Below, piece by piece: positions 1 through 49,115 of a stretch of 50,617 nt of DNA. Each line of letters starts with the position of its first letter. The first letter of the stretch is position 1. Source of the stretch: an uncultured archaeon (lineage in GTDB: Archaea; Nanobdellota; Nanobdellia; Pacearchaeales; GW2011-AR1); NCBI GenBank assembly GCA_903828655.1, contig CAIKMX010000023.1, positions 1-50,617 on the forward strand, in the 5' to 3' direction. Position numbers and translations under genes: made by a program. The notes beneath the pieces were generated by a model that saw only the letters and a list, made by a program, of their open reading frames with translations, made no database searches and had not been told where the DNA came from.

Positions 1-75
1 AAACACCAATTTCAAAGGAAAGTTGAACTTTAAGAAAACCTTGGTTGTCTTAAGTTTCTAAAAAGAAAAGAGTGA
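1..75 (+). repeat. Repeat module A (AAACACCAATT...TTCTAAAAAGAAAAGAGTGA) with a module F copy (16..54) nested in its left hairpin arm. It ends at the stop codon of 76..642.
   Basis: Flanks match module A at 18947..18996, 36164..36216 and (reverse) 48914..48967. The inner 39 nt matches F copies at 2863..2901 and 23786..23824. Confidence 0.75.
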
Positions 76-642
76 TTACATCCCCTCAATAAGCTTCGCG
101 TCATTAAACTTTCCTAAAGATTTGTAAATCTCAAGAAGCTTTTCCTTAACCTGTCTCTTCTCAAGCTCATCAAGGTTCATCTTTATTAGATGCTCATAAA
201 ATCTCATAGCATTTCCCCTCTTTCCCTTCCTTTCCAAATCTTGTGCAGCAAGCATATAGATATTCTTTCTTGCAAGTTTAACATTAGCTCTCTGAGGATC
301 ACTTGCTTCCCTCATTGCACGAACAAACATTTGCTCACTCTCATCAATTCTTCCAACTTTTGAATAAAGCTCAGCAGCCTTAAGATAGCTCTCAATTTTA
401 TCCTTATAAGTTATGTCAATCCCTGCACCATTCTCATAAGCCTTTGCAGCCTTATCCCACAACTTTTGTTCCTCATATAGCTCTCCAAGTGTCCTCCATA
501 AAAATCTCTTCACTTCGAATGTAAACGCCTTGTATCCCAGTGCACTCTCTAGATAAGAAATCTTGTTTAAAGGAGTGAGCATCGCTCTAAGTTTCTCTTT
601 TATCTCACCTACAGTAGTCTCTCTAACTTGTATCACCATCAC
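76..642 (-). CDS. TPR-like helical repeat protein (hypothetical)
   Basis: 188-aa ORF with repeated A/Y/L-rich helix pairs (WDKAAKAYE, AAELYSKVGRIDESEQMF, AMRFYEHLI). TTAAATA (minus sense of 661..667) lies about 20 nt upstream of the ATG. Confidence 0.55.
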   Translation of the reverse strand: MMVIQVRETTVGEIKEKLRAMLTPLNKISYLESALGYKAFTFEVKRFLWRTLGELYEEQKLWDKAAKAYENGAGIDITYKDKIESYLKAAELYSKVGRIDESEQMFVRAMREASDPQRANVKLARKNIYMLAAQDLERKGKRGNAMRFYEHLIKMNLDELEKRQVKEKLLEIYKSLGKFNDAKLIEGM

Positions 643-698: not shown

Positions 699-759
699 AG
701 GAAGGTGAAGCCAGTCATGTGACCGAAGTCTTGCATTATAAAAACCTTGGTTTCCTGGG
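699..759 (+). repeat. Repeat module F, extended variant (AGGAAGGTGAAG..GTGACCGAAGTC..AAAACCTTGGTTTCC)
   Basis: Same head and tail as other F copies. It also carries the same about 24-nt internal insert as 2191..2252, containing a GAC-CGAA-GTC mini-hairpin. Confidence 0.7.
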
Positions 760-830
760 CAAAGGATTTATGTGGTGAAATGCTATGGAGAAATATAAAA
801 ATGAAACAGAAAATAAGTTACCAACACGTT

Positions 831-2160: not shown

Positions 2161-2340
2161 AAGAATTAGCACATTCACAAACCATCTTAAAGGAAAGTTG
2201 AACCGGTGATTTTGACCGAGGTCTTGCTTTCTAAAACCTTGGTTTTCTTAGGAAAGCGAGCATCGTGACGAATGTCCGATGCGAGCGAAAATCGTTTAGT
2301 AACACTACAATTAGTTCACAATTCAACAGCTCCAAAATTA
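2161..2340 (+). repeat. Composite repeat B - F(extended, 2191..2252) - C (2255..2288) - D (2294..2340)
   Basis: AGCACATTCACAAACC; AGGAAAGTTGAAC..AAAACCTTGGTTTTCTTAGG; AGCGAG-CATCG-T-GAC-GAAT-GTC-CGATG-CGAGCGA; GTTTAGTAACAC. Confidence 0.8.
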
Positions 2341-2820: not shown

Positions 2821-2862
2821 CCAGAAACAAAGTTCCCACTAATCATTCATTCCTACATTAAC

Positions 2863-2901
2863 AGGAGAGTTGACCTTCAAGAGAACCTTGGTTCTCTTAA
2901 G
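2863..2901 (+). repeat. Repeat module F (AGGAGAGTTGACCTTCAAGAGAACCTTGGTTCTCTTAAG)
   Basis: Contains a perfect AAGAGAACC/GGTTCTCTT inverted repeat. It aligns with 16..54 and 23786..23824. Confidence 0.8.
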
Positions 2902-2945: not shown

Positions 2946-4241
2946 TTACTTAGTAATAAGCTTTTTCTCTACGAGAGACTTGCAAACGCCTGCAGCTACT
3001 GTAACACCAGCATCTCTAATAGCAAATCTTGACATGTTTGGATTGTCCACTGCGGTTTCCAAAACAAGATTTCCTATAGGCTTGATTCTTACAATCGCTA
3101 CATCTCCATTCTTCAAAAAGTCTGGATTTTGCTGAGCAACCTGTCCTGTAGCTGGATCTAGTCTTGCTTGTAGTTCTATGAACTGGCAAGGCACCTGAGC
3201 TGTATGTACATGAAATACCGGAGTATAGCCCTTAGCAATAACAGTTGGGTGATTGATTACTGCAATTTGTGCTGTAAACTCTTCAACTATCTTCGCTGGC
3301 TTTGTTGCATCGCAGATTACATCACCACGAGCAACGTCCTTCTTTCCAATACCTCGTAAGTTGATTCCAACATTGTCTCCAGCTTCAGCTTCTGATAATT
3401 GTTCGTGATGAGCTTCGATACTTCGAACTTCACCCTCAATTCCAGTTCCGCTTCTTCCGGGTAATACAATAACCTTCTGTCCAACTTTCATGGTACCAGT
3501 CTCAATTTTTCCAACAGGAACAGTTCCAATTCCAGTGATTTCATATACATCCTGGATTGGCATACGCAAAGGTAAGTTTGTTGGCTTAGATGGTGCAGGA
3601 AATTTATCTATCTGTTCGAAAACAGTAGGTCCCTTATACCAAGCCATATGCTCAGATCGTTTCTTAACGTTATCGCCTTTCAAAGCTGATGCTGCAACGA
3701 ATTCTGTAGTGTCAGGTTTATAACCTGCTTGCTTCAAAACTGCTGAAACATCTTCCTTGACTTTCTTATACTTAGCTTCATCATAGCCAACAACGTCCAT
3801 CTTGTTGACGATTACTGCCAAGTTTTTTACACCCATAGTTCTTAACAACCATACGTGTTCTTTTGTCTGTGGCTGGACTCCGCCATCAGCTGCGACAACT
3901 AAAAAAGCTGCATCTGCCTGTGAAGCACCTGTAATCATGTTCTTAACGAAGTCTTTGTGACCTGGAGCATCGATTATAGTAACTTCAAAGTTAGGTGTCA
4001 TGATTTTCTTGTAGGAAAGATTGATTGTAACTCCTCTCTCTCTTTCTTCCTTAAGATTATCCATGACGTAAGCAAACTCAAAACCAGCCTTATTGTGCTT
4101 TGCTGCCTCTTCCCTGTGTTTTGTCATTTCCTGTTCAGACACCATACCACTATCGTAGAAAAGTCTACCTATCATAGTAGATTTTCCATGGTCTACGTGC
4201 CCTACGAAAACGACATTCATTATTGGTTTTTGTTTCGCCAT
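2946..4241 (-). CDS. tuf: Translation elongation factor EF-1 alpha
   Basis: GHVDHGKST, DAPGH and NKMD GTPase motifs over the full length. The start is placed at ATG 4241 (MAKQKPIMNVVFVGHVDHGKST) because the track start at 4274 is TTG. Confidence 0.95.
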   Translation of the reverse strand: MAKQKPIMNVVFVGHVDHGKSTMIGRLFYDSGMVSEQEMTKHREEAAKHNKAGFEFAYVMDNLKEERERGVTINLSYKKIMTPNFEVTIIDAPGHKDFVKNMITGASQADAAFLVVAADGGVQPQTKEHVWLLRTMGVKNLAVIVNKMDVVGYDEAKYKKVKEDVSAVLKQAGYKPDTTEFVAASALKGDNVKKRSEHMAWYKGPTVFEQIDKFPAPSKPTNLPLRMPIQDVYEITGIGTVPVGKIETGTMKVGQKVIVLPGRSGTGIEGEVRSIEAHHEQLSEAEAGDNVGINLRGIGKKDVARGDVICDATKPAKIVEEFTAQIAVINHPTVIAKGYTPVFHVHTAQVPCQFIELQARLDPATGQVAQQNPDFLKNGDVAIVRIKPIGNLVLETAVDNPNMSRFAIRDAGVTVAAGVCKSLVEKKLITK

Positions 4242-4332
4242 TTGAATTATATTTAATTTAGTTATAATACACAATAAAGTGTATGAATATCAAGTGTAAT
4301 TGCCATTTAAAAATCTAATGGTTTTAAATTAA

Positions 4333-4508: not shown

Positions 4509-6701
4509 CTACTGATTCTCCTCCAATCCTTTTCTCTCTCTAATTTGTTTTATAATTCTTGCTTGCAGTTCTCCAGGCAATTTCTTGAAATTCTGATCCA
4601 TCAAACTACTTATTCCACGACCTTCAGTAGCGCTTCTCAAATCAGAACTCCATCCCAACATTTCAGCAACAGGCAATTCTGCTTTTACTGTAACTCCAGA
4701 TTCTTCTTGTATAACATCTGCTAACATTCCTCTCTTCGTTGAAACTAATTGTGTAACTGTAGACATGAAATCATTTGGTGCTTCAATCTGATGAGTCTGT
4801 ACTGGCTCAAAAATTGCAGGTGTAGCCTTTGAGAATGCCTCTCTTATTGACTCTCTTATTGCAGGATAAACTTGAGCTGGCCCTCTATGAATTGCATCTT
4901 CGTGAAGTTTCATATCAACCATTGAAATCTTTAATCTATAACATGGCTCTCTTGCCAAAGGTCCTTGATCCATAACATTCTCAAATGAATCCAAAATCAA
5001 TTCGATAACCTCTCCGATATGAACTTCTCCTTTTGTTTTATCAAGGAAAACATTTCCTTTGTAAATATCTCTGTATTGCTGGGCTTCATCTCTTGAAATT
5101 CCTAATGAAACCAATGTCTCATCGAGCTTCTTATCTTTTTTCTTAATTCTTACTTCTGGCAAAGTTCCTTCATCAATAGCTTTTGTTATCGCTTCCTCTA
5201 ATGGCTCAACAACAATGTAGAACTTATTGTGCCCGTTAGGAGAACGTCCTTCCGCAGGGGGGGATTGTTTCATAACCGACTCTCGATAAACTACAATCGG
5301 AGCAGAAGTTTCTACTTCTAATCCCTTTTCAGTTTTAATTCTGTTCTCGATAATTTCAAGATGTAATTCACCCATGCCGGATATTAAAGATTCTCCAGTC
5401 TCCTCGTTAATATTAACTTCTAATGAAGGATCTTCCTTAGCTACCTTCTTCAATATCTCAATTAATTTGGGCAAATCTGCAGATCTCTTTACACTTATTG
5501 CCTTTGTAATAACTGGTTTGAAGATATGTTTTATTTCTTGGAAAGGAGTTTGTTCACTAATAGTTATAGTCTCTCCAACTTCCGAAACAATTCCAGAGAT
5601 GGCCAAAACATTTCCACAAGGAACATTCTCGACCTGTTCAGGTTTTACACCATCATAAACCAAAACCTGTTGTATTCTTTGATGTTTTTTAGCAAGATTA
5701 AGATAAACTTCCTGTCCAACCCTTAAGGTTCCAGAAAACAATCTTCCCGCAGAAATTTCTTTTCCAGAACGAGGATCAATAACAATTCGGGTGATAACAA
5801 AAGCTGTCTCGCCATTTGGATTGCAAGTCATCAAATCTTTTCCAAATGAACTATCTAAATCGCCCTTCCATATTTTTGGGATTCTATATTTTTGAGCTTC
5901 TAAAGGCGACGGCAAGTGTTTTACTACTACATCCATCATTACTTCAAACAATGAAGCATTTTTCCAAACCCAATCTTTTCTTTCTTCTTCAGATAATTTC
6001 TCATCATATATTTTATAGATATCTGCAAATGAAACTCCTTTCTTCTTCATATAAGGAATTGTTAAAGCCCAATTATCTCTTGCAGAACCGAATGCAACGC
6101 TTCCATCATTAACACTAGCCTGCCACTTTACTCTAAATTCTGGCTCCGCCAATTTTGTAACTAAAGTATTAAACTCATGTATAATCTTAACAAATCTTGC
6201 CTGCATCTGCTCCGGCGTAAGTTTCAATTCTTTAATCAGTCTATCAACTTTGTTAATAAAAAGTACGGGCTTTACTCTTTCCCTTAAAGCCTGTCTTAAA
6301 ACAGTTTCTGTCTGAGGCATTATTCCCTCTGAAGCACAAACTAAAACCATCGTTCCATCAATAGCTCTCATTGCTCTTGTAACATTTCCTGAAAAATCAA
6401 CGTGCCCGGGAGTATCAATCAAGTTGACGAGATACTCTTCTCCAGCAAAATCGTGAACCATAGATACATTCGCAGCATCTACCGTTAAAAGCCTCTCCTG
6501 TTCATCCGCATGCTGCCATGTCGCCATTCCTTCATCTAAATCCCCTGCATTTTTAGCCGCCAATTTTCCAGCAGCAGCAAGCAAGTTATCGGTAAAAGCA
6601 GTTTTTCCATGGTGAATATGAGCAGAAGTAGCGATGTTTCTGATATAGTTCTGATTCATAATAATTCTCTTTATTTTATCAAAGTTTTTTTCGCCTGCCA
6701 T
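4509..6701 (-). CDS. fusA: Translation elongation factor EF-2
   Basis: 730 aa with AHIHHGKT, DTPGH and NKVD motifs. The C-terminal region containing the diphthamide-site His is present (EDAIHRGPAQ). Confidence 0.95.
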   Translation of the reverse strand: MAGEKNFDKIKRIIMNQNYIRNIATSAHIHHGKTAFTDNLLAAAGKLAAKNAGDLDEGMATWQHADEQERLLTVDAANVSMVHDFAGEEYLVNLIDTPGHVDFSGNVTRAMRAIDGTMVLVCASEGIMPQTETVLRQALRERVKPVLFINKVDRLIKELKLTPEQMQARFVKIIHEFNTLVTKLAEPEFRVKWQASVNDGSVAFGSARDNWALTIPYMKKKGVSFADIYKIYDEKLSEEERKDWVWKNASLFEVMMDVVVKHLPSPLEAQKYRIPKIWKGDLDSSFGKDLMTCNPNGETAFVITRIVIDPRSGKEISAGRLFSGTLRVGQEVYLNLAKKHQRIQQVLVYDGVKPEQVENVPCGNVLAISGIVSEVGETITISEQTPFQEIKHIFKPVITKAISVKRSADLPKLIEILKKVAKEDPSLEVNINEETGESLISGMGELHLEIIENRIKTEKGLEVETSAPIVVYRESVMKQSPPAEGRSPNGHNKFYIVVEPLEEAITKAIDEGTLPEVRIKKKDKKLDETLVSLGISRDEAQQYRDIYKGNVFLDKTKGEVHIGEVIELILDSFENVMDQGPLAREPCYRLKISMVDMKLHEDAIHRGPAQVYPAIRESIREAFSKATPAIFEPVQTHQIEAPNDFMSTVTQLVSTKRGMLADVIQEESGVTVKAELPVAEMLGWSSDLRSATEGRGISSLMDQNFKKLPGELQARIIKQIRERKGLEENQ

Positions 6702-16180: not shown

Positions 16181-16255
16181 GGCTCCGTAGCTCAGCCCGG
16201 TTAGAGTACTGGACTTTTAATCCAGGTGTCGCGGGTTCAAATCCCGTCGGAGCCA
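16181..16255 (+). tRNA. tRNA-Lys (anticodon UUU), no intron, CCA not encoded
   Basis: Acceptor GGCTCCG/CGGAGCC, D arm GCTC..GAGT, anticodon arm CTGGA-CTTTTAA-TCCAG, T arm GCGGG-TTCAAAT-CCCGT, discriminator A. Confidence 0.9.
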
Positions 16256-16307
16256 TAATGTTATTGAACAAAGTGAAATAACATTAATTCTGATTTGAAA
16301 ACGCGAC

Positions 16308-16394
16308 TGTCGCGGGCGAGTTTAGAGCTTTTTGACAATCTTAGAGTATATACAAAATGGTCTAGACGAGTAAAATCCACGTCGGAGCCATAAT
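16308..16394 (+). pseudogene. Degenerate duplicate of the tRNA-Lys 3' part, interrupted by about 56 nt
   Basis: TGTCGCGGG (16308..16316) equals tRNA 16227..16235. AAATCC-A-CGTCGGAGCCATAAT (16373..16394) equals tRNA plus trailer 16239..16259 except for one inserted A. No 5' half is present. Confidence 0.7.
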
Positions 16395-22456: not shown

Positions 22457-22716
22457 CAAACCATTACAAAAAAAGGGGCTATTTAAATATTTCTGTGATG
22501 AAGTATATAATTGAAAATTTTAAAAAATAAAAATAAAAATAAAAAATAATTTTCAAGAATCAACATTTACTTTTTCAAAATGACATAATAAGCGCAATCC
22601 AATTTACGCTCGCCCTGATTTTGATGCACGATTGCATCTTGCAAGTTAGAGGCTCGCTTTTAGGTAACTGCACTGTCCAAGGTTGTGGCAAAGCAGAACA
22701 TAAACAGTAAAATGCA

Positions 22717-22792
22717 GCCAAGATGTTAAAATTTAACACATTACCAAAATAAAAAAGAGCGGAGCATCGTGACGAAGTCCGATGCATAGCGA
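22717..22792 (+). repeat. Repeat modules B + C. C (22758..22792) ends 4 nt from the stop of 22796..23632.
   Basis: GCCAAGATGTTAAAATTTAACACATTACCAAAA, then AGCGGA-GCATCG-T-GAC-GAA-GTC-CGATGC-ATAGCGA. Confidence 0.8.
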
Positions 22793-23632: not shown

Positions 23633-23710
23633 AATATAATTTAGAATTACAACTTTTTAAAGATGAAGGAGAAAGAAAAAATAAACTGCTCCTAACAAAT
23701 TTAAACAAAA

Positions 23711-23840
23711 AACTTAGCCCACGATGTTAAAACATAGCACATTCACAAAACTCGCCCGTGCGAGCGCGGGAGTCTAACTTAACAGGAAGGTTGAACTTCA
23801 AGGGAACCTTGGTGCCCTTAAGGAACGGAGCGCGAGCAAC
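23711..23840 (+). repeat. Composite repeat: B, then C-prime split by a nested F copy (23786..23824)
   Basis: GCGAGCGCGGGAGTC (23762..23776), then F, then GGAGCGCGAGCA (29..40 of 238xx). Compare the uninterrupted C-prime at 1619..1656. Confidence 0.75.
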
Positions 23841-23848
23841 ACATACAA

Positions 23849-24238
23849 TCATTGATCTCTAACCGAATCCGCAATATCCCTATAAGAATCAAAATCTTTA
23901 TCATAAACTCCAAGTTCTCTTTTCAAAGCAATCTCCACCTTCTGAATTTCAAGCCGAAGCTTTCTAGTTTTTTCATCTGAATGAGAATATTCTTCAGATT
24001 GCTTAGGGGACATAATGGTTAATCCATGAATGACCCAACGGATATCATACATCCTCAATCCGACATCAACACCATAAAGTATTCCATAAGAAGAATCCAT
24101 ATTTTGCAGAGACTCAAAAAAAGTTTTAATCTTCTTTGAATCAATACTATCAAATTGTATCTCTTTTATGAAATTACTCAACACCCTATATAAAGAACTA
24201 TAGGCCTCCAACCTCTTTTCAAAAATCTTCTCTTCCAT
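23849..24238 (-). CDS. Hypothetical protein
   Basis: The ORF extends to 24307. The internal ATG at 24238 (MEEKIFEKRLE) has TTTATAAG about 30 nt upstream, so the shorter form is preferred. Confidence 0.45.
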   Translation of the reverse strand: MEEKIFEKRLEAYSSLYRVLSNFIKEIQFDSIDSKKIKTFFESLQNMDSSYGILYGVDVGLRMYDIRWVIHGLTIMSPKQSEEYSHSDEKTRKLRLEIQKVEIALKRELGVYDKDFDSYRDIADSVRDQ

Positions 24239-24335
24239 ATAACAAAAAAGATTATAGAACTTATAAACATTTTTAATAAAAATAAATGAACTAAACTTCC
24301 ACAACATTTATAAATACCCCAAAATAAAACATTAC

Positions 24336-29589: not shown

Positions 29590-29697
29590 ATAGCCCCGCC
29601 AGGATTCGAACCTGGGTCACCGGCTTCAGAGGCCAGTATCCATAGTCTCCATTACACCTTTATTGGCTTCATGAATTTGACCGCTAGACTACAGGGC
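29590..29697 (-). tRNA. tRNA-Gln (anticodon CUG) with an about 35-nt intron at a non-canonical D-arm position
   Basis: Minus-strand read: AGCCCTG-TA-GTCT-AGCGGTCAA-[ATTCATGAAGCCAATAAAGGTGTAATGGAGACTAT]-GGAT-A-CTGGC-CTCTGAA-GCCGG-TGAC-CCAGG-TTCGAAT-CCTGG-CGGGGCT-A. The anticodon and T arms are canonical. The exact intron borders are uncertain. Confidence 0.7.
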
Positions 29698-29955
29698 TAG
29701 ACCTGCTTACGCAGATAAAACATCTCTAGTCTATGAAGATGCTTCAAACTAACGAACCTGACTAGTTTTAAAAATCTTGCTAATTCAAACTTTTTAGTAA
29801 TGTAACACCACCCTTAACATCTTGGCAACATTAACAAAGTAGTTTAGGCAAAATTGTGAGTGAATTTATGAGCGGAGATTTTGCTATTAAAATACTCATC
29901 TTTCAAAGTTTTTTATTTTAAAAAACTTTATAACTACAAAATTCATCAATTAATC

Positions 29956-30483
29956 ATGGTAACAGAAAAAATAGCTGCAAACCTTATTGGGGATAGGATA
30001 TTCTCAAACTCCAAAGAAGCTCAAAACCTTTTTGCAAGTCAAAGATTCGGAGAGCAAATTGGAGAGAAAATATTCTATTCAATGTCTGAAGCACTCTTCC
30101 TAGTTGAACAAGGAAAGATGCAAATAAACGATTTTAAGAACAAGAAAATATCTCAAAAGGATTTAATGACAAAACTTCAAAGGATAGATAAAAAATTTAA
30201 AACAAAATACATGGTTTTCAAAGATCTAAGAGAAAAGGGATACATTGTAAAAACCGCATTAAAGTTCGGAGCAGAGTTTCGTGTCTACGAGAAAGGAAAA
30301 TCAATAGGAAAAGATCACGCGAAGTGGATTTTATTTCCAGTCTCAGAAACCGAACAATTGACCTGGCATGATTTTTCCGCGAAAAATCGTGTAGCCCATA
30401 GCACAAAGAAAAACCTTCTAATCGCAATAGCCGATGACGAAGGCGACGTTTCTTACTATGAAGTCAAATGGATAAGGCCGTAA
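29956..30483 (+). CDS. endA: tRNA-splicing endonuclease
   Basis: C-terminal catalytic domain LKFGAEFRVYEKG....DHAKWILFPV....W.DF....RVAHSTKKNLLIAI.D..GDVSYYEVKWIRP. The start is placed at ATG 29956 because the track start at 29881 is TTG. Confidence 0.88.
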   Translation: MVTEKIAANLIGDRIFSNSKEAQNLFASQRFGEQIGEKIFYSMSEALFLVEQGKMQINDFKNKKISQKDLMTKLQRIDKKFKTKYMVFKDLREKGYIVKTALKFGAEFRVYEKGKSIGKDHAKWILFPVSETEQLTWHDFSAKNRVAHSTKKNLLIAIADDEGDVSYYEVKWIRP

Positions 30484-30547: not shown

Positions 30548-31561
30548 ATGATTGACGTACAAGAGGTAAAACAGAAAATACTAAAGCTTCTGGATGAAAA
30601 GGGGCCAAGTCTTCCAATGCATTTATCCAAAGATGTCCAGCTATCCACGATATTTACATCAGCAATTCTAGCAGAACTTATTCATGAAAAGAAGGTAAGT
30701 CTATCAAAACTAAGAATCGGCTCATCACACCTATACCTCCTTCCAGGTCAAGAAAAGAAACTAGAAGAATTCTCAGACAATCTTTCAGGAGTAGAAAAAG
30801 AAGCCTACATGATACTAAAAGAAAGAAGGGTTTTAGATGATGAAAAACAAACCCCTGCAATCCGTGTCGCCCTTAGAGCAATAAAAGATTTTGCCACACC
30901 ATTAAGATATCAAGAAAAGATAGTTTGGAAGTACACTTTCGCACCAACAGAAGAAATACAAGAAATCCTTAAGAACAGAAAACCTGCGCAACAAGAAATT
31001 CCCCGAGAAAAAATAACTCCCCCCACTAATGAACAATTACCTCAAGATCCTATTCCAGCAATAATTGAAAAACCCGCTATCGAAGAAAAAGCAGAAAAAG
31101 AGATTGAAAAAATAGTAGAAGTTATTGAGAAACCTTTGGAGAAAAAAATTGAGCAAATCTTCGAAAAGCCAATTGAAACAAAAATCCACATAGAAAAACT
31201 AACTCAAAGGAAAGGTGAACTTCAGGAAAACCTTGGTTTGCATAAGAAGGACAAAAAATCAATTAACTTCCTTGAAGAAATCCGCGCTTACTTATATGGG
31301 AAAAACATCGAAATGCTCAACACTTTAGACATAAAAAAGGACGAGATAACTGCAATAATAAGGCAAAAAGAACGAGAACACCTCCTTGTAGCATATAATA
31401 GAAAGAGGGTATCTGAAAAAGACATTCTAAAGGCATACAAAAAAGCCCAATCCCTTAACCTCCCATATTATATACTTTTCAAGGGTTCTACAACAAAAAA
31501 GATGCTTGACACGATTAATGCCTATAAACAACTACTTGAAATCGATAACCTGGAACCCTAG
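30548..31561 (+). CDS. Winged-helix-like protein with an IEKP-rich low-complexity linker (hypothetical)
   Basis: 337 aa. The N-terminal region (ILKLLDEKGPSLPMHLSKDV...SHLYLLPGQE) looks wH-like. The central linker is EKPAIEEKAEKEIEKIVEVIEKPLEKKIEQIFEKPIE. The function is not recognised. Confidence 0.6.
   Translation: MIDVQEVKQKILKLLDEKGPSLPMHLSKDVQLSTIFTSAILAELIHEKKVSLSKLRIGSSHLYLLPGQEKKLEEFSDNLSGVEKEAYMILKERRVLDDEKQTPAIRVALRAIKDFATPLRYQEKIVWKYTFAPTEEIQEILKNRKPAQQEIPREKITPPTNEQLPQDPIPAIIEKPAIEEKAEKEIEKIVEVIEKPLEKKIEQIFEKPIETKIHIEKLTQRKGELQENLGLHKKDKKSINFLEEIRAYLYGKNIEMLNTLDIKKDEITAIIRQKEREHLLVAYNRKRVSEKDILKAYKKAQSLNLPYYILFKGSTTKKMLDTINAYKQLLEIDNLEP
31208..31246 (+). repeat. Repeat module F copy lying in frame inside CDS 30548..31561
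   Basis: AGGAAAGGTGAACTTCAGGAAAACCTTGGTTTGCATAAG aligns with the intergenic F copies and is translated as RKGELQENLGLHK. Confidence 0.7.
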
Positions 31562-31576
31562 AACATACTGCTAATT

Positions 31577-31749
31577 TTAGGTAACAACACAATCCGTTAA
31601 CATACTTGGCAATATAATTTTAAAGACTTAGCAATTCAGCATATTAAGCATATCATATACAAATAAAACATTGCCAAGCCATCAAACCACAACACATTAC
31701 CTAATCGTCCGTAAAGCGAGGCATCTTGACAAAGTCAGATGCCGAGCAG
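31577..31749 (+). repeat. Composite repeat D - spacer - B - C
   Basis: TAGGTAACAACACAATCCGTTAACATACTTGGCAAT..TTTTAAAGACTTAGCAAT; AACATTGCCAAGCC..ACATTACC; AGCGAG-GCATCT-T-GAC-AAA-GTC-AGATGC-CGAGCAG. Confidence 0.8.
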
Positions 31750-31801
31750 CAAAACCAATAACAATAATCTTTAAAAACCATCATTCTTAACCTATCTTAA
31801 G

Positions 31802-32365: not shown

Positions 32366-32533
32366 AATCCGTTAATTGAATAAAATTGCCCACAACAGTG
32401 TAAAAAAGTTGTGCAGTTACCAAAAAAGCCGTAAAGCGAGAAACTGCGGCGAAGCCCAGTTTCGAGCATAGTTTAGTAACATCTCAATCCGTTGACAGTA
32501 TTGTCCATTTAATTTTAAGACTTAGCAACTTAA
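32366..32533 (+). repeat. Composite repeat B-like - C (32435..32468) - D (32471..32533), ending at the stop codon of 32534..32848
   Basis: GTTACCAAAAAA; AGCGAG-AAACTG-C-GGC-GAA-GCC-CAGTTT-CGAGCA; GTTTAGTAACATCTCAATCCGTTGACAGTATTGTCCATTTAATTTTAAGACTTAGCAACTTAATT. Confidence 0.85.
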
Positions 32534-32911: not shown

Positions 32912-33058
32912 GACTTAGCCAAAAACATTAAAACCCCTCACATTCGAAAAAAGTCTGGGAAGCGAAGCGCCGTGACGAAGTCCGGCGCGGAGCGGTAGTA
33001 AGTAATACCCCCCTGCTTTCACATCATTGGCAACTTAAATTAAAGGTATTGGCAACAC
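32912..33058 (+). repeat. Composite repeat B - C (32961..32995) - D
   Basis: GACTTAGCCAAAAACATTAAAACCCCTCACATTCGAAAAAA; AGCGAA-GCGCCG-T-GAC-GAA-GTC-CGGCGC-GGAGCGG; ..CATCATTGGCAACTTAAATTAAAGGTATTGGCAAC. Confidence 0.8.
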
Positions 33059-39467: not shown

Positions 39468-39479
39468 TTTAGCAACACA

Positions 39480-39598
39480 CGCCCATGACAGGATTTGAAC
39501 CTGCGACCCCTGACTTTCTTTGTTCTACGAACGAAGAACGAGCGAACTCGCTTCGCACTTAGAAGGCCAGTGCTCTATCCAGGCTGAGCTACACGGGC
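39480..39598 (-). tRNA. tRNA-Arg (anticodon UCU) with a 44-nt intron at the canonical 37/38 position
   Basis: Minus-strand read: GCCCGTG-TA-GCTC-AGCCTGGATA-GAGC-A-CTGGC-CTTCTAA-[GTGCGAAGCGAGTTCGCTCGTTCTTCGTTCGTAGAACAAAGAAA]-GTCAG-GGGTC-GCAGG-TTCAAAT-CCTGT-CATGGGC-G. Confidence 0.85.
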
Positions 39599-39677
39599 AT
39601 GAATATAATTGGTTTTGATGGGTTTTAAAGTTTTGTTATTTCGATAGAAATAAAAAGCAGAACAATAAGAAACAAAC

Positions 39678-41551: not shown

Positions 41552-41622
41552 CAAGAACCCAAAACATTACCAAAAAAAGTTCCGTAAAGCGAAGCATTGT
41601 GACGAAGTCCAATGCGGAGCGA
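41552..41622 (+). repeat. Repeat modules B + C. C (41588..41622) ends 4 nt from the stop of 41626..42060.
   Basis: CAAGAACCCAAAACATTACCAAAAAAA, then AGCGAA-GCATTG-T-GAC-GAA-GTC-CAATGC-GGAGCGA. Confidence 0.85.
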
Positions 41623-42812: not shown

Positions 42813-45800
42813 TCAATTAAATAACATCTTCGCTTTTCTCTGTATTTCCTGTTCAAGTGCAACCTTCTTAGCATCCAACTCAGCTTCCTTCTTCTTCATC
42901 TCAGTCTTAAGTTTATCCTTATACTCTTCTCTCAATTCCTCTTTAAGCTTAATCGCTCTCTCCCCCAACTCTCTTCTTATCTGCGCTTCCTTTTCAGCCT
43001 CAAGTTTTGCTCTCAAAGCAGTCTCTTTAAATCCTAACTCTTCAACTTTGTTATCAACTTCCTTTTTCTTTCTATCATAATCTTCCTTAAGTGAATTTTT
43101 CAAGAACAAATATGCCTCATTATGTTTCTGTTTCATCTTATCAAACTCTCCTTTTTCTTGAGCAACCGTTCCCTCTATCTCCTTTTCTTTTTCCTTCAAA
43201 ACCTTTTTTAATTTTTCTTGTTCTTCCAACATCTTTTGAACTCTTCTCTTTAGAAGCATTTCTTTAAAACCCAAACTCTTTTTCTTTTCCAAAATCTTCA
43301 TCATAGACATCCTCTCACGAGCGTCCTCTCTTCTTTCTCTCATCTTAACCGCCCGAATCATTTCCCTCTCCACGGCTTTTTTATGCGCCTGCTCTCTCAT
43401 CTTTCTAATCTCCGCACTCTTCATCATTGCCTGCTCCTTTTCAGCGAGCTTCTTTTTGAGATGCTCTTCTCCCTCAGCGAGCTTCTTTTTGAACGTTTTT
43501 TCTTCTTCAGCAATTTTTTTATTCAATGCTTCGTGTTCCTCCGCAGATTTTTTTCTAATTTCCTCTCTTCTCTTCTCAAGTTCATTAATCTTCTTTTGAA
43601 CCTCTTCATGCAATGCCTTTTTCCTGCCTAAAACAACCTTATCCATCTTATCCCCTTTCTTCCTTGCCTCTTCCTCTGCTTCTTTCTTTATATTTTGAGC
43701 TTCATCTATCTCCTTAGCAACTTTGCTATTGAGTTCTTTTTCTTTTTCTCTCAAATCAGTTTTTAACTTTTCTTGATCATCTAACATCTTCTTTACTTTC
43801 TTTTTAAGAAGATTTTCTTTAAGAATCAAATTTTTCTTTTGTTCTATGATTTTTCTCATAGAAGTCCTTTCATGAACCTCTTCATGTTTCTTCATCGCAA
43901 CAAAATCCCTCATCATCTCCTTTTCTCTTACCGAAAGATCTTTTCTAAGCCCCTCTTCTCTTTCTGCAAAACTCTCCCTCAAGGCTTCCTCTTTCTCTGC
44001 AAGACTCTTTCTAAACTCTCTTTCTTCCTCGGCCAACTTTATACTCAATGCTTCGTGTTCCTCCGCAGATTTTTTCCTTGCCTCCAATTTTTCTTTCTGA
44101 AGCTCTTCTACTTTTCTTTTAACCTGTTCTTCAAGTTCATTAATCCTATGAGAAATAACCTTCTGCGCTTCCCTTTCAGCTCCCGCCTTCACTCTTCTAG
44201 CATCTTCAATCTCAAGAGCCATCCTTCTCTCAAGTTCAATCTCTTTCTCTTTAGAAGCCCTTTTTAGTCTAGCCTGCTCCTCTAATATTTTTTTAACTCT
44301 TCTCTTTAGAAGCATTTCTTTCAGACCCAAATTTTTTTTCTTTTCCAAAATCTTCATCATAGACATCTTCTTAAGAATATGCTCTTTTTTCTTCTCTATT
44401 TCAAGAGCTTTCATCATTTTCTGTTCTTTTCTTGCAAGATCTTCTTTGGCTATTCTTTCTTCCTTAGAAAGTTTCTCCATAAATGCTTTTTCTTTTTCTT
44501 TAGAATCCTTTTCCTGGGATGAAAGACCCTTCTTCATCTCAATTTGTTTCTTTAAAAATTCGGCCCTTATCTTACTCTCTTCATTTGAAAGACCCTCTCT
44601 CATCTTCTTCTCTTCTTCAGATTTTTTCCTTTCAAGCTCTTTTTCTTCTTCCAAAAGTTTTTTCTTAAATTCTTTCTCCTCTACGGCAAGCTTTCTCTCA
44701 AGAATCTCATGCTCGGAAGCAAACTTTTTCTTTGCCTCTTCCTTCTCATTCTCTATACGAGCTTTTGTTTTCTTAATCCTTTCTTCAAGTTCTTTTTCCT
44801 TATGGGAAGAAATCTTCCTTGCCTCCTCCTCCGCCTGTTTCTTTATCCTCTCGGCTCTCTCTTTCACACTAACAATATGCATCTCAAGCTCTTTTTCTTT
44901 TTCCTTTAAAGCTTTCTTTAATTTTTTCTGCGCATCCTCACGTAGTTTAATAGAATCAGAATTTTTCCTAACTTCATTCTCTTTCTCCATAATCTTCTTT
45001 CTCAAGATTTCTTCTTTTTCAAACAACTCTCTTCTAAACCCTCTTTCTTCTTCAGCTAACTTCTTATTCAACGCGTTATGCTCCGCAGCAGATTTTTTTC
45101 TCACTTCCAATTTCTCCTTTTCAAGCTCAGAAAGCCTCTTTTGAATCTGTTCCTCGATTTCTCTTTTTTTCTGAAGAACTATCTCATTAAGTCTCTCATT
45201 TTTCTTTCTCGAGTTCTCTTCAGCTTCCCTTTTTACTTTATGAGCCTCCCGTATCTCCCTATCAACTTGCTCATTAAGTTGCTTCTCTCGATTATAATGA
45301 AGTTTATTTAATCTTGCAACTTCCAAGGCAATCTCCTTCTCAAATCTCTCATGTAACTCATTCTTATGCAACAAGGATTCTTCATCAAACTTCTGCCTTA
45401 ATTTCTTTCTTTCATCAGTCAATTCTTGGACCATTCTCTTTTTCAAAGCAACTTTTGCATCCTCAAACTCTTTTTCTGCACGATGTCTAAGAATTGTTGT
45501 CTCTTCCTTTGTAAGCTTAACCTTTTGATCTTTCAATGCTTTATCCAATAAACTCTTAAATCTCCTCTCAACATCTTTCTTCAAAGTAGTTTCAACTCTA
45601 TTTTCATAATCCTCATGATACTTCTGTTCTAATGCACGATATTTTTCATTAAAGATTTTTTCATTAGAGATTAAATCTTCATGCAACTGCTTCTGAATCA
45701 TAGACTCTTTATTTTTTATTTTATCAGATAATGCAATCTTTATGTCATTTAATGACATATCAAAAGCTTCATTAGTAAGCAAATTAACTGAAGGATCTAT

Positions 45801-46235
45801 TCTCTTAAGGATTTCCTTCTTTCTCTCCTCCTCCCCCTTATGAGCCTCTAATTCCCTATGAAGCTTATTTAATTCCGAATGCAACAAATCCATTTCCTTC
45901 TCATAAGCTTTATTTTTAACGCTAACATGTTTTTTATTCTCAATCTCTTCTTTTAATGCCCTTATTTTCTTATCTACTTCAAGTTTAACATTAACAGTTT
46001 TCCTATGTTTTGGTTTATATCTTCCAGAAATTTTAGCTTTTAGAATTTTAAGCTCTCTCTCAATAATAGGAATATCAGAAACACTCTTTAATCTCGAACG
46101 AATCACTGACGCCTCAGCTTCATGCCCTCTAACGTTCAGCCCATTCAACTCTACCTTTAATTCCTCAAGTCTCTGAACGCCCTTACTAAAGATTTCAAAG
46201 TCCTTCCTCAAACTAGATTCAGCAGTTTTCACCAT
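42813..46235 (-). CDS. 1140-aa Glu/Lys-rich coiled-coil protein with 3-4 long internal tandem repeats
   Basis: No TM segment or NTPase motif is seen. Repeated blocks include KKSAEEHEALNKK[LI]AEEE..F.K.L.E.EE (four copies) and MSMMKILEKKK.LG.KEMLLKRRV.K.LEEQ (three copies). Confidence 0.8.
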   Translation of the reverse strand: MVKTAESSLRKDFEIFSKGVQRLEELKVELNGLNVRGHEAEASVIRSRLKSVSDIPIIERELKILKAKISGRYKPKHRKTVNVKLEVDKKIRALKEEIENKKHVSVKNKAYEKEMDLLHSELNKLHRELEAHKGEEERKKEILKRIDPSVNLLTNEAFDMSLNDIKIALSDKIKNKESMIQKQLHEDLISNEKIFNEKYRALEQKYHEDYENRVETTLKKDVERRFKSLLDKALKDQKVKLTKEETTILRHRAEKEFEDAKVALKKRMVQELTDERKKLRQKFDEESLLHKNELHERFEKEIALEVARLNKLHYNREKQLNEQVDREIREAHKVKREAEENSRKKNERLNEIVLQKKREIEEQIQKRLSELEKEKLEVRKKSAAEHNALNKKLAEEERGFRRELFEKEEILRKKIMEKENEVRKNSDSIKLREDAQKKLKKALKEKEKELEMHIVSVKERAERIKKQAEEEARKISSHKEKELEERIKKTKARIENEKEEAKKKFASEHEILERKLAVEEKEFKKKLLEEEKELERKKSEEEKKMREGLSNEESKIRAEFLKKQIEMKKGLSSQEKDSKEKEKAFMEKLSKEERIAKEDLARKEQKMMKALEIEKKKEHILKKMSMMKILEKKKNLGLKEMLLKRRVKKILEEQARLKRASKEKEIELERRMALEIEDARRVKAGAEREAQKVISHRINELEEQVKRKVEELQKEKLEARKKSAEEHEALSIKLAEEEREFRKSLAEKEEALRESFAEREEGLRKDLSVREKEMMRDFVAMKKHEEVHERTSMRKIIEQKKNLILKENLLKKKVKKMLDDQEKLKTDLREKEKELNSKVAKEIDEAQNIKKEAEEEARKKGDKMDKVVLGRKKALHEEVQKKINELEKRREEIRKKSAEEHEALNKKIAEEEKTFKKKLAEGEEHLKKKLAEKEQAMMKSAEIRKMREQAHKKAVEREMIRAVKMRERREDARERMSMMKILEKKKSLGFKEMLLKRRVQKMLEEQEKLKKVLKEKEKEIEGTVAQEKGEFDKMKQKHNEAYLFLKNSLKEDYDRKKKEVDNKVEELGFKETALRAKLEAEKEAQIRRELGERAIKLKEELREEYKDKLKTEMKKKEAELDAKKVALEQEIQRKAKMLFN

Positions 46236-48913: not shown

Positions 48914-49115
48914 TCACTCTTTTCTTTTTAGAAAAAAGAAAATTGGTGTTTCAAAAGAAAAACTAAGATAGCAAAACAAAAAACATTGCCAAGCCACCAA
49001 AGAACCAGACATATTACCAAAAATTTAGGCAAGAGCGAGCATTGTGACGAATGTCCGATTTCGAGCGACAGTTTGGTATCCTCTCAATCCGTTGACATAC
49101 TTGGCAACTCAAATA
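48914..49115 (+). repeat. Composite repeat A (reverse orientation) - B - C (49034..49068) - D
   Basis: TCACTCTTTTCTTTTTAGAAAAAAGAAAATTGGTGTTTC; AACATTGCCAAGCCACCAAAGAACCAGACATATTACCAAAAA; AGCGAG-CATTG-T-GAC-GAAT-GTC-CGATT-T-CGAGCGA; GTTTGGTATCCTCTCAATCCGTTGACATACTTGGCAAC. Confidence 0.85.

Follow-up and report, generated by a model that had tools for sequence, protein, structure and literature searches.

A copy of a dispersed palindromic repeat lies in frame within the linker of a conserved DPANN archaeal protein

The DNA analyzed here, referred to throughout as the window, is a 50,617-nt stretch of a contig from an uncultured archaeon of the Pacearchaeales (CAIKMX010000023.1). The gene of interest, at 30548..31561 on the plus strand, encodes a 337-aa protein conserved in DPANN archaea, with 287 database homologs, all unnamed or labeled Nanoarchaeota, Pacearchaeota, or similar, and no Pfam family was found for it. 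The gene order host gene, S17e, Alba is common to the window and to the contigs carrying the two closest homologs (L001 and L002, 76% and 74% protein identity, respectively), and a tRNA-splicing endonuclease gene lies upstream of the host gene in L001, as it does in the window (29881-30483). AlphaFold, supplied with a 120-sequence alignment, predicted two confident domains (residues 1-145 and 236-330), each at a pLDDT above 93, and a linker between them (residues 146-235) with a pLDDT of ~50. The N-terminal domain gave weak winged-helix-like structural matches in Foldseek (TFE-alpha, RPC62, and MarR), and the C-terminal domain is predicted to be of the alpha/beta type. The linker, encoded at 30983..31252 (+), is rich in IEKP, predicted to be disordered, and variable in length, its columns being highly gapped in alignments of 28 and 120 sequences.

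A short repeat, here called F, is present in the window as four full-length copies and two long variants. F is ~49 nt long; its left arm reads CTAACTTAAnAGGAArGTTGAAC and leads into a hairpin of 27 nt, CTTyAAGrrAACC-TT-GGTyyyCTTAAG. Three of the full-length copies are intergenic, on the plus strand, and 22-45 nt beyond the stop codons of minus-strand genes: one at 6..54, 22 nt past the stop of the gene for a TPR protein (76..642); one at 2853..2901, 45 nt past the stop of the EF-1alpha gene (2946..4274); and one at 23774..23822, embedded between GC-rich GCGAGCGCG blocks and 27 nt past the stop of the gene at 23849..24307. The fourth is located within the host gene, and a repeat search grouped all four, as 6-57, 2853-2904, 23774-23825, and 31198-31249, into one family (D6). 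In the first long variant (2183..2254, +; nhmmer matches at 2183-2203 and 2233-2254), the two arms are split by ~29 extra bases (CGGTGATTTTGACCGAGGTCTTGCTTTCT); the second, at 700..767 (+), is more diverged, with a weak nhmmer match at 741-756, and belongs to repeat family D14.

A degenerate core pattern, run once against genomes and once against metagenomes, yielded ~17 true F copies, each scoring >30 bits, on other contigs of low G+C in Pacearchaeota- and Woesearchaeota-like lineages. L003, a MAG of Pacearchaeota, and L004, a MAG of Woesearchaeota, are among them. Within the hairpin, 93% of cells are paired; three of its pairs change from AU to GC on both sides, and the loop and closing pairs are invariant. 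There are no G-U intermediates, so the functional strand of the hairpin is not assignable. The pattern scan gave no match in viral contigs, and an Rfam search of F and the other repeat modules, at gathering thresholds and at E <= 1, found only tRNAs. F has no obvious terminal inverted repeats, since its ends, CTAACTTAA... and ...CTTAAG, are not mutually inverted and the palindrome is internal. No transposase was found among ten neighboring open reading frames (ORFs) scanned.

The copy within the host gene occupies positions 31199-31246 (+) and comprises 48 nt, corresponding to 16 codons (218-233) translated as LTQRKGELQENLGLHK. A sequence-only reading of this DNA had pointed to a repeat copy at 31208-31246. 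Its core is correct, and its quotation of codons 221-233 (AGG AAA GGT GAA CTT CAG GAA AAC CTT GGT TTG CAT AAG), translated as RKGELQENLGLHK, agrees with our own; the similarity begins 9 nt earlier, at CTAACTCAA, making the copy 48 nt rather than 39 nt long. Its comparison with the intergenic copy at 16..54, where TAA stands in place of the genic CAG, is likewise accurate. The nucleotide similarity that it had proposed far exceeds that of composition-matched controls: a profile of 17 F copies built without the genic one matched it over 31200-31249 at 48.9 bits (E = 1.7e-14), compared with 53-57 bits for the three intergenic window copies and a maximum of 14.8 bits over 200 shuffled windows. A profile made from the three intergenic window copies alone gave the genic copy a score of 30.3 bits (E = 1.6e-8), with the next unrelated match at ~8 bits, and reached at best 16.8 bits in 200 dinucleotide-shuffled windows and 12.3 bits in 2000 codon-shuffled versions of the coding sequence (CDS). 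The 39-nt core is identical at 37 of 39 bases with intergenic copies on metagenome contigs L013, L037, and L041, which have the same diagnostic variants as the genic copy (GGTGAAC, yAGG, and CmTAAG), and its left arm, CTAACTCAAAGG, is identical with that of the second copy in L029.

Of the six reading frames of F, three can be read without a stop, and the genic copy uses one of these. It has C at the unpaired bulge position of the repeat, a base present in 10 of 18 copies; in the others, T at this position produces TAA or TAG. The hairpin part of the genic copy (31220..31246, +) is decayed, with 9 of 11 pairs left, and its minimum free energy of -2.2 kcal/mol, for a fold that is not that of the family, compares with -8.6 to -8.9 for intact copies. 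Such a loss of two of the 11 pairs is expected if the structure is no longer maintained at the genic site. Profile searches of the 50.6-kb window detected F in none of its other CDSs, and no other in-frame copy was found in 45 other loci. A peptide-profile search with the three stop-free frames of F against 5.8 billion proteins, a search of low power, returned 14 word-sharing candidates, none with E <= 10.

Comparison with homologs indicates that the genic segment was gained. In the alignments of 28 and 120 sequences, residues 221-232 have counterparts in 0-1 of 119 homologs, and in a MAFFT alignment of the DNA, both L001 and L002 have a single clean 36-nt gap opposite 31208-31243, amounting to a net gain of 36 nt on the plus strand relative to the two closest orthologous loci. 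The flanks of the gap are collinear on both sides and ~80-90% identical by eye to L001 and L002. The nine bases directly before it, CTAACTCAA, agree with F and not with the TCTCCCAAG or GCACCCAAG of the relatives, so the simplest account is that the 48-nt copy replaced ~12 nt: about four codons, SPKI or APKN in the relatives, would have become 16, a net gain of 12 codons. There is no clear target-site duplication at the genic site, where ~12 nt were apparently replaced. As judged from these alignments, the genic segment is a lineage-specific insertion that arose after the split from the closest sampled relatives, which answers the question of ortholog coverage that the sequence-only reading had raised for its 13-codon segment. 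L001 and L002 also lack 206 nt located directly after the stop codon (window 31557-31762), a block that contains other repeat modules and has altered the last codon and the stop of the host gene. Together, the 36-nt and 206-nt gains show that this lineage acquired repeat DNA at several points in a neighborhood that is compact in its relatives. In the AlphaFold model, the insert fills the last part of the linker, ending 3-5 residues before the helix that starts at residue 236, and the earlier placement of the segment at the end of an IEKP-rich linker between two folded regions is thus borne out. All of the refuting tests proposed in the sequence-only reading favored an insertion.

Outside the window, F is found beside or within several kinds of gene. 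Its right end falls 0-4 nt short of the ATG in five ORFs, among them those for eL43 and the proteasome alpha subunit, and 2-3 nt short of the +1 in tRNA-Gly and tRNA-Thr. In L014 and L021, tRNA-Thr genes have a copy in the opposite orientation after their 3′ end. In L012, F lies 8 nt after the 3′ end of 16S rRNA, within the processing stem; we looked for a second F copy that might pair with it, but none is present upstream of 16S in L012, and the stem is formed from other sequences. The reverse complement of F makes up the first part of two tRNA introns at the canonical site, confirmed by ARAGORN with the intron option: the 59-nt intron of tRNA-Arg(GCG) in L038 and the 153-nt intron of tRNA-Lys(CTT) in L009, which contains 3.5 tandem copies.

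The genes for eL43 provide a second site with filled and empty loci. In L008 and L050, an insert of ~65 nt containing F separates a canonical promoter (ATCTTTAAAAAC) from the ATG, whereas in six orthologous loci, whose proteins are 83-84% identical, the insert is absent and the promoter is ~21 nt from the ATG. The insert has TTAAG on both sides, a possible target-site duplication seen at this site only. This contrast between filled and empty loci is evidence, independent of the host gene, that F inserts. The genes and tRNAs of the window have a TATA box that begins ~30 nt before the ATG or +1, suggesting that transcripts in the window are leaderless, and the eL43 loci show that F can turn a predicted leaderless gene into one with an F-containing leader.

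Several other explanations of the genic copy were weighed. The linker is of low complexity and purine rich, so that a chance or compositional resemblance has to be considered, and one pattern match, an apparent second genic copy in L039, did prove accidental, its sequence encoding the FDNQGFLEVQT motif of a gene similar to those for class II aminoacyl-tRNA synthetases. The score of the genic copy, however, is far above those of the shuffled controls, and the segment is missing from all 119 aligned homologs. The related idea that the intergenic copies derive from the gene is contradicted by the same absence: F is present in other DPANN genomes and in noncoding contexts, and the peptide is in none of the 119 homologs, so the host gene cannot be the source of the family. 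Chance or an origin within the gene is therefore hardly credible. Nor do we give more than slight weight to an assembly or consensus artifact, in which the repeat would have induced a mis-join in a metagenome contig. The exact host protein is found on one contig only, exact-protein look-ups for the host protein and the endonuclease found no independent assembly of the allele, and contigs of the same population in other samples, which are identical to the window and come from ERZ18624736, ERZ27313080, ERZ18626952, and ERZ27313098, end before the insertion site, near repeat modules. Yet the genic copy has no exact duplicate in the window; by inspection, it matches any of the others over at most ~13 consecutive bases, below usual assembler k-mers, which makes an assembly error unlikely, and the flanks are collinear with L001 and L002 and the frame is preserved. 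A more specific proposal is that the genic copy is part of a bulge-helix-bulge (BHB) intron that is cut from the mRNA by the tRNA-splicing endonuclease encoded at 29881-30483, leaving a mature protein that lacks the segment. The Cbf5 mRNA intron of Crenarchaeota is a precedent, F is itself BHB intron sequence in two tRNAs, and a canonical BHB can be drawn at the genic copy (outer helix UCUU/AAGA, bulge AAG, central helix CGAA/UUUG, bulge CAU, inner helix CCAA/UUGG), which predicts a 75-nt in-frame intron at 31168-31242 and a spliced product still inside the range of linker lengths of the family. An equally good BHB, though, arises in 9.2% of random insertions of the genic copy into CDSs of the window and an in-frame one in 3.9%, and the background density is 0.14 such motifs per 210 nt. 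The 5′ splice site predicted for this intron falls outside the insertion, 31 nt upstream of it, and PIETK, retained in the closest relatives, would be lost on splicing. The tRNA-intron transcripts contain the reverse complement of F, whereas the genic transcript contains the forward strand, and an open frame across all 48 nt would be a coincidence under this proposal, which we regard as improbable.

An alternative that is unlikely but deserves more attention than these is that F is mainly a functional cis-element, conserved and copied for what it does rather than selfish, and that the genic copy is accidental or exapted, for example as an internal regulatory site. It is conceivable that F serves as a portable promoter, as a Shine-Dalgarno-like box with a hairpin leader for leadered transcripts, or as a protein-binding hairpin. 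Its position directly before five ATGs and before the +1 of two tRNAs accords with such roles. F contains TATA-like boxes (TTTTAAAGG and CTTTAAGAAAACC) similar to the promoters of the window itself and an invariant AGGA..TGA box similar to GGAGGTGA sites upstream of operon-internal genes, which make a promoter or a Shine-Dalgarno-like leader role conceivable. The changes in the stem are compensatory, and F is nearly identical in sequence across contigs of 26-42% G+C, a constancy that could reflect conserved function rather than mobility. Against this, there is no gene on the F strand after any of the three intergenic window copies, and no start codon follows the genic copy within 60 nt. The central TTTAAG box was considered as a promoter and set aside: it is 3-4 nt too close in four of seven gene-adjacent copies when compared with the window spacing of about -30, and in the copies directly before start codons in L008 and L044, it has degenerated to CTTCAAGG. 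At the eL43 site, the old promoter is retained upstream of the insert, and the reverse-oriented copies in tRNA introns and behind rRNA fit poorly with a promoter.

We consider it probable that 31199-31246, a real copy of F, is a near-neutral, translated linker insertion of a small mobile repeat. The 48-nt copy entered the host CDS in frame, replacing about four codons. Family membership, the insertion, its linker setting, the presence of F in tRNA introns, and the second site with filled and empty loci are demonstrated by the present data; translation, neutrality, and the movement and any function of F are our inferences. We infer that the segment is translated from its open frame, and because the site lies in a disordered linker of variable length, the extra peptide is most likely tolerated as a nearly neutral passenger. 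F itself would be a small, insertion-prone element, probably nonautonomous and mobile, that persists at sites where its presence costs little: behind gene ends, in the 16S trailer, at canonical tRNA intron sites, from which it would be spliced out, at the junction of transcription start and ATG in leaderless genes, and, in a single case, within the reading frame of a linker. The distribution of F fits an element that is kept wherever it is harmless.

The nearest parallel is with the Rickettsia palindromic elements (RPEs), to which the sequence-only reading had compared the genic copy. Like RPEs, F is a short dispersed repeat with a palindromic core, and it has inserted in frame at a permissive site with the ORF left intact. 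To our knowledge, no sequence relationship between F and RPEs is to be expected. RPEs are ~100-150 bp long and encode a conserved peptide of 30-50 residues in dozens of unrelated bacterial ORFs, whereas F is ~49 nt long, belongs to DPANN archaea, and provides one in-frame case, being located mostly at gene boundaries and in tRNA introns. The parallel thus holds for the single event, in which a member of a palindromic family lies in frame at a permissive site in a gene whose orthologs lack it, and does not extend to recurrence in unrelated genes. An RPE family is also found in noncoding DNA and RNA genes, as F is (review PMC10969869).

Other short repeats share some of the features of F. Proteobacterial REP/BIME sequences, which are mobilized by RAYT transposases, are likewise imperfect palindromes of ~35-50 nt, mainly extragenic, and often located past gene ends, and like BIMEs, F joins other short modules in mosaic blocks (1440-1660, 2140-2330, 23700-23840, and 31557-31762). 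The tags of REPs, GTAG or CGTC at the 5′ end of the palindrome, are missing from the F consensus; neither a RAYT nor an IS200/IS605 gene was detected in the 50 kb or in the loci examined, and we know of no REPs that lie within tRNA introns or within the frame of a gene. MITEs of archaea (Sulfolobus SM1-4, Halobacterium, and Haloquadratum) resemble F in being small, noncoding, present in multiple copies, and variably present or absent among relatives, but classical MITEs are 80-350 bp long with terminal inverted repeats and target-site duplications, whereas F has an internal hairpin and lacks terminal inverted repeats. With Correia elements (CREE/NEMIS) of Neisseria and with mobile promoters, F shares its adjacency to start codons, its promoter-like boxes, and a hairpin predicted in transcripts. 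Correia elements, however, have terminal inverted repeats, a TA duplication, and experimentally demonstrated promoter and RNase III functions, and F is likened to them by sequence features.

Transposition of BHB introns among tRNA genes has been reported in Thermoproteales. The occurrence of F in introns recalls such related BHB introns in that one sequence occupies the canonical 37/38 site of different tRNAs (Lys-CTT and Arg-GCG), a recurrence that points to a dispersed element as the source of the introns. Unlike shared BHB introns, F is not confined to introns but occurs in intergenic DNA, the rRNA trailer, and a CDS as well; we know of no published description of a tRNA-intron sequence that has spread beyond introns. 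Mobile elements can disrupt tRNA genes (PMC3293823).

In-frame capture of dispersed repeats is a recognized bacterial route to new protein sequence. In the literature searched, we found no archaeal case of such capture and no description for archaea of one repeat family that occurs in tRNA introns, an rRNA trailer, intergenic DNA, and a CDS. By analogy, the genic F copy may be regarded as an archaeal counterpart, as a single event, of the in-frame repeat insertions of Rickettsia. Insertions of this kind and repeat mosaics break metagenome assemblies and inflate the intergenic regions of otherwise very compact genomes. More tentatively, and with considerable doubt, F may be a DPANN mobile element that seeds or expands BHB introns in tRNAs, colonizes intergenic DNA and rRNA spacers, and enters protein genes in frame, and that would thus connect three phenomena dealt with separately until now; in a stronger form of this idea, the genic copy itself would be spliced from the mRNA by the tRNA endonuclease. 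The presence of F in introns, together with filled and empty sites, would make the gain of archaeal tRNA introns testable by comparative genomics and transcript mapping. If F is indeed an element that moves among introns, intergenic DNA, and coding sequences, introns gained by archaeal tRNA genes could be traced to a concrete source, and the RPEs would have their equivalent in archaea.

An AT-rich module, GATGTTAAAAyyTAGCACATTCAyAAAA, is repeated in the window at positions 1561-1609, 2150-2180, 22701-22749, and 23702-23750, and is always followed, ∼10-15 nt further on and on the same strand, by either a GC-rich module or F; it resembles a promoter that would drive small non-coding RNAs. A GC-rich module, GCGAGCGCGrGAG ... 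GGAGCGCGAGC, exists in two versions, at 1620-1657 and 23756-23840, one containing F within it, whereas the other has just GACAGAG at the same position. The two versions could be related by nested insertion of F, or one could be a deletion derivative of the other.

An occupied and an empty state were found upstream of the eL43 gene, where contigs L008 and L050 carry a ∼65-nt F-containing insert, with TTAAG on both sides, between the promoter and the ATG. The orthologous sites in contigs L051-L057 are empty, and two of these, L056 and L057, have instead a separate palindrome further upstream, TTCAACTTTA..TAAAGTTGAA, similar to the F left arm. The reverse complement of F forms the exact start of two tRNA introns on other contigs: the 153-nt intron of tRNA-Lys(CTT) (L009, 1974-2203), which contains 3.5 tandem 37-nt units, and the 59-nt intron of tRNA-Arg(GCG) (L038, 7381-7511, minus strand). 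The 44-nt intron of the window tRNA-Arg(TCT) (39479-39599, minus strand) is rich in GCGAAGCGAG, a motif that also occurs in the intergenic modules. A candidate tRNA-Ser(GGA) (29590-29699, minus strand) was reported by ARAGORN only with the intron option, and its Rfam tRNA match is weak and partial (26.7 bits, E 0.21, over 29597-29656). The 3′ end of the window tRNA-Lys(TTT), GTCGGAGCCATAAT (16246-16259), recurs 135 nt downstream (16381-16394), with a GC-rich hairpin, GCGACTGTCGCGGGCGAG, between the two repeats; a tRNA 3′ end repeated in this way is what integration of an element at a tRNA gene usually leaves behind.

The stop codon of the gene that hosts the in-frame F copy is followed at once by a 206-nt block (31557-31762) that is missing from L001 and L002, the contigs of the two closest relatives of the host protein. 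The block, which is made up in part of D4/D5 modules (31573-31638) and a D7 hairpin (31715-31748), altered the end of the host gene: its last codon, CAA, became CCC, and its TAA stop became TAG. Four other samples contain contigs identical to the window.

Besides F, a second repeat family of the window is a hairpin with flanks AGCGAG...CGAGCG, copies of which lie at 865-898, 2255-2290, 22758-22791, 31715-31748, 32417-32460, 32961-32994, 41588-41621, and 49034-49067, with another in L001 at about 3482-3523. Its inner part, YGRC-GAA-GYC, is conserved, and the outer stem varies and covaries; the hairpin behind the Alba gene, common to the window and L001, shows compensatory changes (GAAACTG/CAGTTTC versus GATATTG/CAATATC). 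No Rfam match was found for this family, which may represent a structured RNA. A 1140-aa ORF (42813-46235, minus strand), which probably encodes a coiled-coil protein, harbours longer internal repeats, ∼500-555 nt in length (families D1-D3 and D10-D13 of the repeat search).

An intergenic stretch of >1 kb in L004, a contig of the Woesearchaeota MAG (4665-5900), is full of its own dispersed and tandem modules, such as GATGAACGAGCGATAGCGAGTGAA, and includes two copies of F; mosaic repeat blocks are therefore not restricted to the organism of the window.
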